Shown here piece by piece: positions 38,427-43,991 of a DNA stretch of 64,000 nt. Position 1 is the first letter of the stretch. Every line of letters begins with the position of its first letter. The notes beneath the pieces are model-generated. The model saw only the letters and a list, made by a program, of their open reading frames with translations. It made no database searches and was not told the origin of the DNA. This DNA comes from Candidatus Cloacimonadales bacterium (lineage in GTDB: Bacteria > Cloacimonadota > Cloacimonadia > Cloacimonadales > JAFGVF01). The position numbers and the translations under genes are program-made. The stretch covers positions 2,176,001 to 2,240,000 of the forward strand of contig OY762964.1 in the NCBI GenBank assembly GCA_963667035.1, read 5' to 3'.

Positions 38427-38453
38427 TCATAAAATTAAGGGTGATTAGTTTTT

Positions 38454-38480
38454 GAGCCGGAAATATCCGGCTTTTTCTTT
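38454..38480 (+). terminator. Intrinsic terminator
   Basis: GAGCCGGA AATA TCCGGCTT followed by a T-run. Confidence 0.7.
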
Positions 38481-38490
38481 AGGAGTTATT

Positions 38491-39504
38491 ATGCAAAGAA
38501 TTAAAATTATTGGTGGTGGTAGCTGGGGATTGGCACTTGCAAATCTTCTCGCTGTGAATGGTCATGAAGTTTCCGTGTGGGAATTTGATCAACAAAGAGC
38601 TGAAGAACTGATTAGTACACACTCTAACTCTGTCTTTCTTCCCGGTATCAGATTACATGATTCAATTATGTTTAGTAACTCTCTAAAAGAAGTAGTCCAA
38701 GGTGAATTTGATATATTATTGTTTGCTGTTCCTTCTCAAGTTGTTCGTACGGTAGCTAAAAAGGTTGGAACTCTACTTAGCCCTACTTCAGGATTGAAAG
38801 CAATTGTTAATGTTGCTAAAGGAGTAGAAAAAAAGACTCTCAAACGCATGTCTGAAGTTCTGTCGGATTCTCTATCGAAAGAATTCTCTGATATGATTAT
38901 GACCCTTTCAGGTCCAAGCCATGCTGAGGAAGTTGCAAAAGAAGTATCCACTGCTGTTGTAATAGCAGGTTCAACCAGAGCAAATCAAACTCTGATACAA
39001 AAAACCTTCAGTAATGATTATTTTAGGGTTTATCGATCTAATGACCTCATTGGTGTAGAACTTGGCGGTTCCGTGAAAAATATCATTGCCATAGCTGCTG
39101 GTATAACTGTAGGCTTAGGACTTGGTGACAATACCATGGGAGCTCTTTTAACGAGAGGAGTAGCAGAAGTTAAAAGACTTGGAATAGTTATGGGTGCAAA
39201 TCCCGAGACATTTCTCGGACTATCGGGAATTGGTGATCTTATTACAACCTCTATGAGTAAACATAGTAGAAATAGATATGTTGGTTTCGAGATAGGAAAG
39301 GGTAAAACACTTACGGAAGTTTTGTCATCAATGCAGATGGTTGCTGAAGGTGTTGATTCTACTGTTTCCGTACACGAATTGAGTAATAAATATGAAGTGG
39401 AAATGCCAATTACAGGTCAAGTGTATGAAGTGTTGTTTAATGAAAAAGACCCTAAAGACGCAATTAGATCTTTAATGACAAGGTCTTTGAAAGAGGAAGA
39501 CTAG
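38491..39504 (+). CDS. gpsA: NAD(P)H-dependent glycerol-3-phosphate dehydrogenase
   Basis: GGGSWG, SGPSHAEEV, KNIIAIAAG, GIGDLITT, SRNR. Confidence 0.97.
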   Translation: MQRIKIIGGGSWGLALANLLAVNGHEVSVWEFDQQRAEELISTHSNSVFLPGIRLHDSIMFSNSLKEVVQGEFDILLFAVPSQVVRTVAKKVGTLLSPTSGLKAIVNVAKGVEKKTLKRMSEVLSDSLSKEFSDMIMTLSGPSHAEEVAKEVSTAVVIAGSTRANQTLIQKTFSNDYFRVYRSNDLIGVELGGSVKNIIAIAAGITVGLGLGDNTMGALLTRGVAEVKRLGIVMGANPETFLGLSGIGDLITTSMSKHSRNRYVGFEIGKGKTLTEVLSSMQMVAEGVDSTVSVHELSNKYEVEMPITGQVYEVLFNEKDPKDAIRSLMTRSLKEED

Positions 39505-39507
39505 AAG

Positions 39508-40629
39508 CTAAGCTCCTAGTCCTCTAAAGTCTATATATGCTTTGTTTTTACTGTTTGTTACATCAGGAGTAACTTGTATTAATCTGTTATAAATCTTTTC
39601 AATCATTTCCTTATTATTATCTTCGGATGTATAATAAACAAACTGCTTTGCACTGTCATGTTTTATTGCTAAACTGACAATGTTCTCTCGAGGCTCAAAT
39701 AACAGAACCGAGAAAGAGTAAGTAAATATTATCTCTCTCATCACCTTTCCAAAGGCTTCTATTTCTCTATTAGAGTCACAGCAAGAATCTATGGACTCAG
39801 CTTCACTTATGTATTTCAGATAGTTATTCTTATCTTCTTTTAAATCACTATATCTAACAAAAAGCTTCTTTTTACCTATCTCAGGTGTTACTTGAACAAG
39901 GATTGTCTCCACTATACTTGGATTACCATTGTTACTAACTATAACATCTTCATACTCTATTCTCTCAAACTCCGATTGAATCACTTCGTATGAATTTTTA
40001 CCGAAGCTACTTGGGTCAATCGTTTTTATACCTAATCCTCTAAAGTCTAGAGTCTCACTTTTACACTCACTACAAGTTTTAGGAGTATAGCTGCTTAGTT
40101 TCATGTATACTTTAGCTACTTGATTATCTACATCCCTATCAAGAGCAAAGAAATCAAACGCTTTACCATCAGCTTTTCTTATAGCAATTCCGTATGGTTT
40201 CATCTCTTTCTCAATTAGCATAACTTCTGTGTTATCATTGAGTATAATCTCTTTAGATACCTTACCTACTCTTCTTATCTCTCTTAAGGATTCACATGTT
40301 GACCATATCTTACCATTCTTTACAATTGATTTTAACAAAGGTAATGCTTTACCCCTACTCCCTTTTAACTTTGTTTTCTTGTTTAACTCATCAATTGAGA
40401 ATATTAGAGTTTTGTCCTCACTCTTGTAGTTAACTATAACACTTACTTCTGTTATTATTTCTCTGGGATTATTAGGATTCCTTTTTGCGAAATGCCTGAT
40501 AGATTCATAGTCAGAGAGAATTGCTTCGACTTCATCACCGGACCCGGTAATAAAAGCTGGTGGAACTCAGCCTGATGCAAAAACATTTATTGTAAATAGA
40601 ACAGTTAAAACTAATATAACTACTTTCAT
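39508..40629 (-). CDS. Putative secreted selenoprotein, 373 aa, Sec at codon 21 (extends ORF 39508-40338)
   Basis: AAGGAG RBS; ATG overlaps the upstream TAA; MKVVILVLTVLFTINVFASG-TGA-VPPAFITGSG... stays in frame into the 276-aa ORF; SECIS-like hairpin follows the TGA. Confidence 0.72.
40530..40556 (-). promoter_or_regulatory. Putative bacterial SECIS element
   Basis: mRNA CUUUUAUUACCG-GGUC-CGGUGAUGAAG, ~11-bp stem, loop starts 22 nt after the UGA. Confidence 0.7.
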
Positions 40630-41609
40630 TAGATCTCCTTTTGAAACTTTCTGATATGAAATAGCACGAGTACCCTCTTCACAATTCTCTTAGCCAACTC
40701 TTTTAATTCAAAAATATTAGCTACAGCAATCGTGAAATACTTCATTTTGGGATCTAAAGGCCATGATAACTCTGGGAATTTATAGCCCTCAGCTCTACCC
40801 CATTTGATGAATGCTAATATTGATTCCAAATATATTAGTTTCCTTTTGGGAAACCTTTTCCAGTAACGGGGTCTTCCTGGACCAAGATGTGCTAAATATA
40901 TCTCATTATCACTATCAAATTTACCACTTGTTAAGGGTGGCACCTCTCTTGAAAATGTTAGCAATGAGTTTAATACCGATTCATCTAATTGAGAATAAGC
41001 AGTAAGAGAGTAATCATAGGCTACACCGGTGTTGTAATTAGGCAATACTTTCATCATCTGCTTATGCCATTTCTCTATAAACCAAAGATAGTCTGTATGT
41101 ATAGATAGATTACCTCCGGCTACCGTATTCTTTCTCTGTGGACTATCTAGTTCATTAACATCTCTCTTCCATTGCTTAAGAATAATCATTGGAATACCAC
41201 CATATTCATCTTCACGGGTATAGTATTTTGAGAATACCCAACCGTCTTCTTTAGGGGATTTGAAACGAGCTGATAATGAGGGATTATCTTGCTTAAAGAA
41301 GGGAGTAATATCTCCAGTAGCAATGCAATCTCCATCAAAGAGACTGATTATTTCAAATCCGCAATCCTTAGCAGTAAGAATAGCTTCTGCTTTACGTGTC
41401 GTAGGATTCCTTAGATTACTCATATCAGCATCAAAAGTTCTTACATCTTCAAACTGTGAAAACAACTCTTTCTCTTCCTCAGATAAACCTACACATAAAA
41501 CATGTATATTAGTCTTTACTTTATAATATTTTAGAGACAGAATTAGGATAAATGTCGGTATTATATATCCATTGTCGGTAATTGTTACGACAACTGCCGA
41601 ATTTTTCAT
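40629..41609 (-). CDS. Putative GT-A fold glycosyltransferase (GT8-like)
   Basis: VVTITDNGY...ILSL start, FDGDC DxD motif, DESVLN. Confidence 0.6.
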   Translation of the reverse strand: MKNSAVVVTITDNGYIIPTFILILSLKYYKVKTNIHVLCVGLSEEEKELFSQFEDVRTFDADMSNLRNPTTRKAEAILTAKDCGFEIISLFDGDCIATGDITPFFKQDNPSLSARFKSPKEDGWVFSKYYTREDEYGGIPMIILKQWKRDVNELDSPQRKNTVAGGNLSIHTDYLWFIEKWHKQMMKVLPNYNTGVAYDYSLTAYSQLDESVLNSLLTFSREVPPLTSGKFDSDNEIYLAHLGPGRPRYWKRFPKRKLIYLESILAFIKWGRAEGYKFPELSWPLDPKMKYFTIAVANIFELKELAKRIVKRVLVLFHIRKFQKEI

Positions 41610-41681: not shown

Positions 41682-42686
41682 CTACTCAATATTGAGAATA
41701 TCAACAACCGGAAGTTCCGGTAAATACTCTCTAATAGTAGACGCTAAACCCTCACTATCTACATGATTACCATTAATTGCACTACTATTAACTGCTATAG
41801 CATTCATAAGGAACGGATATATTGTTTTAATATCCATCTCTTCTTGCATTAGTTTTACGTTAACAAGGTCAAGCTGGAGATTAAAAGGATGTTTGATTAT
41901 TATCTCTCCATGAAAATCCAGAAAATAACTACCAAGATTATGCCAATTCTTACCTGTAATTGCTCCCGGAATATAAATTCTATCTGGATAATACTCGTGA
42001 CATAGTTCTAAGAACCGTTTCTCATTCCCTAAAAGTGACATTAGATTAGTTGTAATCCATTCATCTTTATACAGAGAGATAAACTCTGTTTTATCAGAAA
42101 ATTCTTTAGTAACAGGTATACTTTTCAAAATCTGTAGTCTTCTGAGTTCTTTAACAATCATCTCTATACTACCATAGTTAGCTCCGGCAGCAATAATCAT
42201 AGCCTGGATACTATCATTAAGAAGTACTGCCTTTCTATCCAGGGAACCATCAATAATAATTGTTGAAGCTCCAAGAATCCTTAATCTCTCTATAATTTCC
42301 TTCTGATCTGTTACACTTGCAGGACCAACTATCTCTGCCTCTGTATCCATTATTGCTTTAACGATCCAAATATCCTTCCCCCCCGCTTTGTATCTAGTTC
42401 TTTCTAGAACTTCATAGCAGTGAGGATTTCTTTTTATCTCGTCAGCAAAAGTAGTAAAGATAGTATTCTTTGCAATTAATACCTTTGGCTTCTCGGTACC
42501 AAAAACCGTGTCTTTATCCTCTCCATCTCTGCCTGTCGTTGTCAGACCGAATCTATATACGGAGTAATGTTTAAGAATCCAGTTTACTAAAGAAGTCTTC
42601 CCTGCATTCTTAGAAAGACCGGTTATTGCTATAACCATTCTGTCGTTAGGGAAAAGAGCTTTTTTGATTTGATCGTAGATTGTCAT
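41682..42686 (-). CDS. Lysine-fermentation-associated P-loop protein (KamB-like)
   Basis: GLSKNAGKT, TTGRDGE..D...T.KP, IDGSLDR; adjacent to kamA. Confidence 0.7.
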   Translation of the reverse strand: MTIYDQIKKALFPNDRMVIAITGLSKNAGKTSLVNWILKHYSVYRFGLTTTGRDGEDKDTVFGTEKPKVLIAKNTIFTTFADEIKRNPHCYEVLERTRYKAGGKDIWIVKAIMDTEAEIVGPASVTDQKEIIERLRILGASTIIIDGSLDRKAVLLNDSIQAMIIAAGANYGSIEMIVKELRRLQILKSIPVTKEFSDKTEFISLYKDEWITTNLMSLLGNEKRFLELCHEYYPDRIYIPGAITGKNWHNLGSYFLDFHGEIIIKHPFNLQLDLVNVKLMQEEMDIKTIYPFLMNAIAVNSSAINGNHVDSEGLASTIREYLPELPVVDILNIE

Positions 42687-42722
42687 GAGAAAATATGCCC
42701 CCATGAAGGGGGCGTTAGGTAA

Positions 42723-43991
42723 TTATTTCTGTTTATTTTTAAAAGCTTGAATCTGCTTCTGTCTGTTATTGCGTTTAGAATCTTCAGGACCAAATGATAG
42801 TTTGTTTCCGTAAAGTAGATTCATAACTCCATCATCTGAACGTCTAACTTCTTCAACTAAACCTGAATAATCTTCTCTATTCTGTTCCTTATACTCAGGT
42901 TCCGTATAAGTTGTAATAAAACCTTCATAGTTTCGTAGAATAACTCTACCCGGCATTTGAGAGAGAATGTAATTAGGTTGAACCGGTATTTTACCACCGC
43001 CACCGGGAGCATCCACAACAAACGTAGGAACACAAAGTCCGGAAGTATGACCTCTTAATGACTCGATTATCTCTATACCCTTTGAAATAGGAGTTCTAAA
43101 ATGTGATATCCCCTCTGAGAGGTCACATTGATAGATATAATAAGGTCTCACACGATTCTTAACAAGCATGTGTACGAGTTTCTTCATAACTTCCACATGA
43201 TCATTTACACCTTTTAGAAGAACAGTTTGATTGCCTAATACAACACCTGCTTCAGCAAGTTTTCTTAATGCTTCTACTGCATCCTGAGTGATTTCATTAG
43301 GATGATTGAAATGTGTGTTAAACCAGATAGGAGGATATTTCTTAAGCATATTGCATAAACTATCTGTAATCCTCTGAGGAAGAACAACAGGAGTTCTAGA
43401 GCCAATTCTAATTATATCAACATGGTCAATTTTATAGAGTTGAGAAATAATCTCTTCTAATCTCTCTTCTCCTAGTGTTAATGGATCTCCACCACTAATA
43501 ATAACATCTCTGACTTCCTTATGTTGTCTGATGTATTCGATGCCCTTTTGAATCTCTTCCATTGGAACTGCCATATCTTTCTCTCCGGCTTTACGACGGC
43601 GAGTACAGTGGCGACAGTACATAGAACACTGATCAGTAACTAAAAGAAGTGTTCTATCAGGATAACGATGTGTGAGACCCTTTGCAGGAGAATCCACATC
43701 TTCATGAAGAGGGTCAGCCATATCATTTCTAGACAAAAAACTTTCCATTATCGCAGGTATTGCCTGCAATCTTACAGGATCTTTAGGGTCATCAGGCTTG
43801 ATAAGTGAAAGGTAATACGGTGTTATTGCCATTCTAAATGAAAAATCTTCATCAGCGAATAAAGCTTCTTCGTCTTCAGTTAGGACAATATACTTTTTCA
43901 ATTCTTCGACTGTTGAAATACGATTTCTCAATTGCCAATGCCAGTCATTCCACTCCTGTTCAGTTGCTATAGATTTTATATCTGTTACCAT
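42723..43991 (-). CDS. kamA: Lysine 2,3-aminomutase (radical SAM)
   Basis: WNDWHWQ, THRYPDR, CSMYCRHCTR, SGGDPL, DAPGGGGKIP. Confidence 0.97.
   Translation of the reverse strand: MVTDIKSIATEQEWNDWHWQLRNRISTVEELKKYIVLTEDEEALFADEDFSFRMAITPYYLSLIKPDDPKDPVRLQAIPAIMESFLSRNDMADPLHEDVDSPAKGLTHRYPDRTLLLVTDQCSMYCRHCTRRRKAGEKDMAVPMEEIQKGIEYIRQHKEVRDVIISGGDPLTLGEERLEEIISQLYKIDHVDIIRIGSRTPVVLPQRITDSLCNMLKKYPPIWFNTHFNHPNEITQDAVEALRKLAEAGVVLGNQTVLLKGVNDHVEVMKKLVHMLVKNRVRPYYIYQCDLSEGISHFRTPISKGIEIIESLRGHTSGLCVPTFVVDAPGGGGKIPVQPNYILSQMPGRVILRNYEGFITTYTEPEYKEQNREDYSGLVEEVRRSDDGVMNLLYGNKLSFGPEDSKRNNRQKQIQAFKNKQK

Follow-up and report, generated by a model that had tools for sequence, protein, structure and literature searches.

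Can a TGA codon that directly follows a signal peptide be read as an amino acid and not as a stop? This question is raised by a gene on the minus strand of a 64,000-nucleotide stretch of DNA from Candidatus Cloacimonadales bacterium (assembly GCA_963667035.1, contig OY762964.1, positions 2,176,001 to 2,240,000), the whole of which is referred to here as the window. In the list of open reading frames (ORFs) made with translation table 11, the locus appears only as a 276-amino-acid form that begins at a TTG (39508..40338). An earlier note, made from the letters alone, had extended this frame by 97 codons to an ATG and proposed that it encodes an exported selenoprotein with selenocysteine (Sec, or U) near the mature N-terminus. 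The note advised a search for the Sec machinery and for homologues, a look at the conservation of a nearby hairpin and a check of the reads, and it named Trp, Arg or Gly at the homologous site as evidence to the contrary. We find it highly likely, from comparisons among genomes, that the gene encodes an exported selenoprotein of an undescribed family in which the UGA is decoded as Sec.

The whole gene occupies 39508..40629 and encodes 373 amino acids, with U at residue 21; the frame is open when TGA is read as U, and homologues align across the TGA. The A of the ATG start (40627..40629) is also the final base of the preceding gene's TAA stop (40629-40631), and the resulting TAATG overlap suggests translational coupling; a ribosome-binding site, AAGGAG, lies 5 nucleotides ahead of the ATG (40635..40640). 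Codons 1-20 encode MKVVILVLTVLFTINVFASG. The signal peptide after the start codon, KVVILVLTVLFTINVFASG, is encoded at 40570..40626, with a putative signal peptidase I site at VFA/SG (the slash marks the cut here and below). Codon 21, the TGA at 40567..40569, is the sole in-frame stop before the terminal TAG (39510-39508), and the next in-frame start after it is the TTG at codon 98. TCES, CSEC and SCC motifs are present in the 373-amino-acid protein. On re-reading, the coordinates and motifs of the earlier note, including the AAGGAG, the TAATG and the frame open to the TAG, all proved correct.

Homologues of the gene were found in very few places. A six-frame search of 61 relatives gave family matches in three genomes, all of one Cloacimonadales genus: the window genome (G000) and two others, G001 and G002. 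A match was not found by this search in G003, a fourth genome of the genus that is 72% complete. Five family genes bear a signal peptide: the window gene, three tandem paralogues in G001 (G001_A, G001_B and G001_C) and one gene in G002. Both the G001 trio and the G002 gene are flanked by the same genes as the window gene. Identity to the first domain of the window protein is 52% for G001_B, 41% for G002, 35% for G001_C and 23% for G001_A.

In all five of these genes, from three genomes, a TGA stands directly after the signal peptide at the aligned position, so that the homologues carry neither Trp, Arg nor Gly there. The residues around it read NVFASG-U-VPPAFITGSG in the window gene, SLFGAG-U-APPSFITGSG in G001_B, SVFGSN-U-MPSSSIIGFG in G001_C, NLFAQ-U-APPSFITGSD in G002 and SAGSHSC-U-GPPPKY in G001_A. 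Protein similarity begins at the first codon past the TGA, with [VAMG]PP[SA]F. The start codon overlaps the stop of the preceding gene in four of the five, as ATGA in G001_B and G002, as GTGA in G001_C and as TAATG in the window; the listed TTG start of G001_A can likewise overlap the upstream TGA. By our own reading, purine runs resembling ribosome-binding sites precede the family genes. The stops that precede the G001 family genes are themselves TGA, and the same codon would therefore be read in two ways, according to context, within a few hundred bases.

Were the TGA a true stop, the locus would hold either a gene in decay or cut short, or a very small upstream ORF resembling a signal peptide, with a 276-amino-acid protein initiated separately at a TTG. 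This is the table-11 reading, and public gene callers gave N-terminally truncated forms only. However, a stop that is kept as TGA, and never as TAA or TAG, at one aligned codon in all five diverged paralogues would be unexpected, and similarity begins immediately past the TGA with no start codon near. The TGA is moreover followed at a fixed distance by a covarying hairpin, described below, and the real TGA stops of the G001 tandem genes have no such hairpin context. A true stop is also implausible because it would leave products of 20-29 amino acids consisting of a signal peptide only, together with conserved sequence that lacks a nearby start. We regard this explanation as very unlikely.

An error of sequencing or assembly could also create a TGA, and the gene is known here from a single assembly. 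Logan contigs from three runs had no differences over 39400-40800 and show the TGA at 40567-40569, which is the outcome of the read check that had been advised; these runs come from one sample, which is probably the source of the assembly, and are not independent. The TGA recurs, however, in four other genes of two other genomes, and an error is barely conceivable.

Wider searches recovered the family only in shortened form. A word-indexed search returned only the window gene's own 276-amino-acid form, and HMMER over 1.84 billion representatives returned five proteins at E <=0.001, all of them N-terminally truncated gene calls, to which a profile search added one further truncated call. The public gene calls of the family, all N-terminally truncated, are 276, 162, 181, 170, 166 and 96 amino acids long. 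Two JGI/IMG proteins of 166 amino acids, P0004 and P0007, start at a position aligned to window residue 38. A profile search of genome contigs gave the G001 record only, and confirmed relatives were not found in metagenome searches with the family alignment or with P0004 as query. Three matches among 232 genomes of the phylum (E 4.4e-4 to 8.1e-4) were rejected as unrelated proteins whose similarity runs through their signal peptides only.

Shortly after the UGA, the RNA can form a hairpin resembling a selenocysteine insertion sequence (SECIS) element (40530..40555). The UGA is followed by 11 nucleotides, the 5' arm UUUUAUUACCG (40545-40555), the loop GGUC (40541-40544) and the 3' arm CGGUGAUGAAG (40530-40540), which pair in an 11-bp stem; the apical hairpin alone has a folding energy of -10.9 kcal/mol. 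The loop lies 22 nucleotides after the UGA, as had been read earlier from the letters. From the UGA onward the five sequences align without gaps, and the distance from UGA to loop is 22 nucleotides in every one. At nucleotides 26-29, counted from the U of the UGA, the tetraloop is GGUC in three genes, GUUU in one and AGUU in one, and a four-nucleotide loop at this place appears in the minimum-energy fold of four of the five (GGUC, GGUC, GUUU and AGUU).

The pairing itself is conserved. For a 9-bp helix across the five genes, 86.7% of cells are paired, a share that falls to 28.9-62.2% on shifting the 3' arm by 1-3 nucleotides. Changes on both sides occur at four of the nine stem pairs, a count matched by 10 of 500 shuffles, and the covariation score of 0.367 (0.247 in shuffles) was reached by 16 of 500, in a control that takes no account of kinship among the five sequences. 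The position of the hairpin is thus kept, with compensatory changes at four of nine pairs, which answers the earlier question of its conservation. G001_A is informative in this respect because its peptide at this place (KYVEFDNG) is unrelated to FITGSG, yet its loop position is unchanged. Synonymous divergence (dS) between the window gene and G001_B is only 0.48 over the 22 codons that come after the UGA, whereas the remainder of the domain has 1.62 and the signal peptide 2.85. The sample is small, and the drop after the UGA is what an RNA element overlapping coding sequence would give.

The hairpins were also compared with the bacterial SECIS (bSECIS) model as given in Fig. 2 of PMC13188914, in which the loop has 3-9 nucleotides with a G at position 1 or 2 and the stem has 4-16 bp. 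The same part of that paper sets a spacing of 16-37 nucleotides and a minimum free energy of -7.5 kcal/mol or lower. Loop length, G position and spacing agree with the model in all five genes. Stems are 5-11 bp in four of the five, the G002 stem having one C-A mismatch, and the apical hairpin alone passes the energy limit in three (-10.9, -9.6 and -8.4 kcal/mol). A search of Rfam with 40450-40640, at E up to 10, gave only the chance matches MIR444 and HOTTIP_4.

Could such a combination of TGA and hairpin arise by chance? All in-frame TGAs of the 3.1-Mb genome that are preceded by 12 or more open codons, a start among them, and followed by 60 or more were scanned for a perfect hairpin of at least 6 bp located 12-35 nucleotides downstream of the TGA. 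The scan gave 149 sites; the loop has a G within its first two positions at 40 of these and is a GGTC tetraloop at three. These three are the window gene (11 bp, 22 nucleotides) and two genes that are Omp28-related selenoprotein candidates (24 nucleotides each), and the combination in the window is more than chance. Other sites of the scan, such as C1:434053, look like an upstream stop and a terminator-like hairpin before a downstream Met start.

Both Omp28-related genes lie outside the window. The first (L043:158-2023, plus strand) has its TGA at L043:257-259 (G000:C1:1142356) in the context W-U-G-Y-C-P, and the second (L044:62-2989, minus strand) at L044:2885-2887 (G000:C1:729586) in the context T-U-G-F-C-P. 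Both encode a signal peptide and a C-terminal sorting domain of the type IX secretion system (T9SS), and the N-terminal 200 residues or so of each match the model NF045500 with 37 bits, the cut-off being 200. NF045500, Omp28-related, is the family listed as 'Hypothetical protein GOS_C' in Table 1 of PMC13188914. The hairpin of the window gene thus has the loop, and nearly the spacing, that this organism employs in genes of a catalogued selenoprotein family.

The genome has the means to decode the codon. It consists of one contig of 3.1 Mb with 35.6% G+C and holds selA (526 bits), selB, which adjoins selA and spans 2-577 of 581 model positions, selD (379 bits, with its own in-frame TGA) and a single tRNA-SeC(tca); all four components that the earlier note had advised looking for are therefore present. 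In G001, G002 and G003 as well, selA and tRNA-Sec were found above the cut-offs. The selD gene (G000:C1:2882088-2883140, plus strand) is itself a selenoprotein gene, with the context TTAAG-U-GAKLGPG, and its hairpin stands nearer the UGA (17 nucleotides) and has a G-rich loop.

The same data bear on whether the UGA might be recoded as something other than Sec, through a near-cognate tRNA (Trp, Cys or Arg) or a local reassignment. The inserted residue is not deducible from sequence data, which leaves some room for this. Against it, a UCA anticodon is carried by tRNA-Sec and by no other tRNA, and the sole tRNA-Trp has the anticodon cca. TGA ends 289 of the 2061 ORFs of at least 150 amino acids (TAA 1163, TAG 609), so that the codon is not globally reassigned, as had been argued before from two genes of the window. 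The hairpin moreover has the loop and spacing seen in SECIS elements of the SelB type and again in two other selenoprotein genes of the genome. We give recoding as another residue only a very slight chance.

Besides the kinship that the shuffle control passes over, several observations weigh against the decoding of the UGA as Sec. The stem lies within the conserved peptide FITGSG, and part of its conservation could be driven by the protein. In G002 the GGUC is at the same place, but the C-A mismatch interrupts the stem and the hairpin is absent from the 60-nucleotide minimum-energy fold. The apical hairpins of G001_A (-5.3 kcal/mol) and G002 (-3.8 kcal/mol) miss the bSECIS energy; the corresponding 60-nucleotide folds have -17.1 and -5.5 kcal/mol, and 60-nucleotide folds were not unusually stable relative to shuffles (z -0.65 to -2.0). 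A Cys-containing homologue was not found among the 1.84 billion representatives, in the word-indexed searches or in 232 genomes of the phylum, which deprives the family of the Sec/Cys pairing by which selenoproteins are commonly validated; as the family is very small, the missing Cys homologue lowers the support for Sec without refuting it. The examples number five genes from three genomes of one genus, and the Haft preprint (10.1101/2022.07.06.499078) asks for at least 10 examples per selenoprotein family. The public runs that hold the stretch include no listed RNA run. Finally, the G002 gene is a short form (L018:1297-1728, minus strand) of 143 amino acids including the signal peptide, in which about 65 residues of the domain are missing. 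N-terminally truncated calls of this short form (P0006, P0008-P0011) make up a five-member cluster from several sources, one of them Candidatus Zophobacter franzmannii, and it is therefore not a one-off assembly artefact.

The conserved TGA, the hairpin and the Sec machinery support the earlier proposal of an exported selenoprotein with Sec near the mature N-terminus. Very probably the gene does encode a selenoprotein, has been mis-annotated and is the first known member of a small new family, so far confined to one genus. Under this reading, translation would start at the ATG at 40629, coupled to the upstream gene, and the UGA at codon 21 would be decoded by SelB-GTP with Sec-tRNA(Sec), recruited by the GGUC hairpin 22 nucleotides downstream. 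The 20-residue signal peptide would then direct the chain through the Sec translocon, and signal peptidase I would cut after VFA. The mature protein would carry Sec as residue 3, on a flexible tail near its free N-terminus.

What kind of protein carries this residue? Window residues 1-205 resemble G001_B and residues 206-373 resemble G001_C. According to the family alignment and the AlphaFold2 model, 40015..40566 encodes a disordered tail (VPPAFITGSGDEVE...) and, after it, the 'B-type' domain, the first of the two. Cys112 lies in this domain, as does a CxxC at residues 186-189, and the domain ends in DFRGLG (40030-40047). The second, 'C-type' domain, joined to it in frame, is encoded at 39511..40014; it aligns to the separate gene G001_C and ends in DFRGLGA, but lacks the signal peptide, the UGA and the tetraloop hairpin. 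Every domain of the family ends in a conserved [ILM]D[FL]RG[LM]G.

Alignment with the sister genome shows the window gene to be, as judged from sequence, a fusion of two domains that are separate genes there. At the G001 locus (L015:836-2717) the A, B and C genes stand in tandem, each with a signal peptide, a UGA and a hairpin; the window genome has no A copy, and its fused B and C domains have a single Sec. At the fusion junction 'B' has lost its stop and 'C' its signal peptide and UGA, and the 5' arm of the hairpin has been replaced, so that the region folds differently, with a 13-nucleotide loop. The second UGA thus disappeared along with its hairpin, an outcome to be expected if the hairpin serves the UGA. 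With three tandem Sec genes in one genome against one fused gene in the other, and the second UGA lost jointly with its SECIS element, the comparison amounts to a natural experiment. The fusion suggests that the B and C domains may act together. A complex prediction for the G001_B domain with the G001_C domain, made without controls, scored 0.00, which counts neither for nor against this.

The AlphaFold2 model, from a 7-row alignment, has a mean predicted local distance difference test score (pLDDT) of 76.5 and a predicted template modelling score (pTM) of 0.73, and it is beta-rich with two helices. Residues 1-35, which include Sec and a PP-rich tail, have pLDDT <50. In the model, Sec is thus placed on a predicted disordered, Pro-rich tail ahead of a beta-rich domain of about 170 amino acids. 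Foldseek gave no match at E <=0.001 (the best, at E 0.097, was to polo-box domains), VIA-align reached at best Z 4.5 over 58 residues, with no chain at Z 5, and a sequence-profile search of the PDB gave 0 matches at E up to 1. The family domain has no recognised fold in these comparisons, which does not show that its fold is new.

Sequence collections were no more informative. No member matched a family in Pfam or NCBIfam release 20, which gave only sub-threshold chance hits at E >=0.004, nor is there a counterpart to the window family among the 119 catalogued selenoprotein families and subfamilies that Table 1 of PMC13188914 lists. The author of the earlier note had not recognised the family either. 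The Sec context is U-x-P-[PS], more exactly U-[VAMG]-P-[PS], without UxxC or CxxU. B-type members have three further Cys (STCES and CxxC), G001_C has none at all, and the only one in G001_A is adjacent to Sec and forms CU.

The family belongs in kind with the SelB-dependent genes that carry a SECIS element within the ORF, for which E. coli fdhF is the prototype. It shares with them the UGA, a stem-loop with G(G/U) in a small loop 16-37 nucleotides downstream, and selA, selB, selD and tRNA-Sec. The fdhF SECIS loop contains GGUC. The window protein differs in being unrelated, in having its Sec at codon 21, directly past a signal peptide, and in lacking any UxxC, CxxU or metal-cofactor context. 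The Omp28-related candidates of the same genome are alike in having a signal peptide, Sec within about 15 residues of it and a GGUC tetraloop, though at 24 nucleotides; they differ in their UG[YF]C motif, large multi-domain bodies and T9SS sorting domains, none of which is seen in the window family, and the family has no match to NF045500. The recoding is of a known kind; the family and the placement of Sec are new.

Other exported selenoproteins have been described. SaoB, SaoX and SaoC are exported proteins or lipoproteins without a thioredoxin fold, in which CC and CU are read as metal ligands in the preprint 10.1101/2022.07.06.499078. The CU dipeptide of G001_A resembles theirs. According to the same source, however, the SAO proteins have Sec internally, in the substrate-binding pocket, or at the C-terminus, have the folds of ABC substrate-binding proteins and belong to a nine-gene operon, and none of these features is seen in the window family, which has no match to the NCBIfam Sao models. 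A literature search joining selenoproteins with Cloacimonadota found no paper, and in one for periplasmic, secreted, extracellular or exported selenoproteins the matches listed dealt with animal selenoproteins. The text of PMC13188914 does not contain 'Cloacimon', 'lipoprotein' or 'secreted'.

How the N-terminus is processed determines where Sec ends up. All five signal peptides are compatible with signal peptidase I, at VFA/SG in the window, LFG/AG in G001_B, VFG/SN in G001_C, LFA/Q in G002 and FSA/G in G001_A. Cleavage there would put Sec at mature position 3, 3, 3, 2 and 6, respectively, with mature starts that we infer to be S-G-U, A-G-U, S-N-U, Q-U and G-S-H-S-C-U. In a crude survey of signal-like N-termini of the genome (n=620), the endings FAQ (13), FAE (9), FAS (5) and FAN (5) were common, and unrelated Cloacimonadota proteins have VFA/Q endings.

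An alternative is that Sec is the +1 residue of a lipoprotein, in which Lgt would diacylglycerylate the selenol and signal peptidase II would cut before Sec, leaving a selenoether anchor. The layout of a signal peptide, Sec, some 15-20 disordered residues and a globular domain is that of a lipoprotein tether, and the family resembles lipoproteins (lipobox [LVI][ASTVI][GAS]C) in its signal peptide, chalcogen residue, disordered tether and globular domain. VFASG-U and LFGAG-U also resemble the phylum lipoboxes IYAGG-C and LIAG-C, and position -1 is Gly in two of the five genes. Lipoproteins, however, have Cys at +1 where this family would have Sec, and positions -1 and -3 fit a lipobox in a minority of members. 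The residues before U (ASG, GAG, GSN, FAQ and HSC) are a poor fit to a lipobox. Position -1 is N, Q or C in three of the five; of the 162 surveyed N-termini with a Cys near the end of the hydrophobic region, 105 have G, A or S at this position, two have N and none has Q. Position -3 is A, G, G or H in four of the five, whereas the commonest -3 to -1 triplets before the genome's candidate lipobox Cys begin with L or I. All five sequences, in addition, fit signal peptidase I with F[AG] or FSA. Signal peptidase I is preferred because of this comparison of the -1 and -3 residues before U with the candidate lipoboxes of the genome. We know of no Sec-lipidated protein, and the phrase 'selenocysteine-containing lipoprotein' was not found in a literature search. 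A Sec anchor is improbable; if true, it would be the first selenoether-linked bacterial lipoprotein. A milder version of this idea is that an X-X-Sec selenolate may serve as a metal hook, or that Sec may form a diselenide crosslink in a reducing envelope.

For the exported selenoprotein cut by signal peptidase I, it is possible, though doubtful, that the selenolate acts as a soft-metal ligand or as a redox or covalent 'hook' in the reducing envelope of an anaerobe, with the domain giving binding specificity. Metal hooks that arise at an N-terminus after leader cleavage include the amino-terminal copper- and nickel-binding (ATCUN) motif, NH2-X-X-His, and the Ni-hook of nickel superoxide dismutase. 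The likeness is that a ligand stands 2-6 positions from a free alpha-amine, X-X-U in three of the five proteins and G-S-H-S-C-U in one, if the cleavage is as predicted. The ligand of the known hooks is His or Cys, whereas in the window family it would be Sec, and metal binding is hypothetical. The CU dipeptide of G001_A and the His at its mature position 3 point loosely to metal binding.

Selenoproteins are systematically lost from annotation, and the window family, all of whose public calls are N-terminally truncated, is an instance of this. The family adds a probable exported selenoprotein, seemingly not of the thioredoxin kind and without an assigned fold, in which some members have no partner Cys and for which no Cys relatives were found in our searches. 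A Sec on a tail near the mature N-terminus is hard to explain by the argument that Sec is a better redox catalyst, and raises the question of the role of a lone selenol outside the cytoplasm of a strict anaerobe.

The genes around the locus are the same in all three genomes that hold the family. The gene upstream (40629..41609, minus strand) encodes a glycosyltransferase family 8 (GT8)-like protein of 326 amino acids with a GT-A fold, and it keeps its place beside the selenoprotein genes in each of them. Its AlphaFold2 model (pLDDT 87.1) matched glycogenin (5.3e-9), WbbM (1.1e-8) and LgtC (1.5e-8) in Foldseek, and D92 and D94 of its DGD motif are invariant in 10 sequences. No Pfam family was matched at E <=0.1, PF01501 included; an Atlas lead for the protein, at rank 15, has PF01501 on 27% of the members of that cluster. 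Homologues of the gene occur in 40 of 232 genomes of the phylum, and in eight loci from other genera none was followed by a relative of the selenoprotein. As none was found in these eight loci, the two genes are paired in this genus only, and a functional link between them lacks support. In G004, from a sister genus (L042:1498-3617), the GT8-like homologue stands, by eye, between a membrane-like ORF of about 370 amino acids and a glycosyltransferase-like ORF of about 390, and these neighbours hint at a role for the GT8-like gene in envelope polysaccharide synthesis rather than at a link with the selenoprotein.

The neighbouring genes suggest no function for the selenoprotein. Downstream lies gpsA, assigned from Pfam as a glycerol-3-phosphate dehydrogenase gene, which is convergent (38452..39504, plus strand) and bounds the locus on this side in each of the three genomes. 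Farther upstream in the window, a gene at 42723-43991 (minus strand) encodes the lysine 2,3-aminomutase KamA, with LAM_C and radical SAM domains. It is directly followed by a KamB-like gene (41682-42704, minus strand), whose 340-amino-acid product scores 185.5 bits, against a cut-off of 210, with the model 'lysine 5,6-aminomutase reactivase subunit KamB'.

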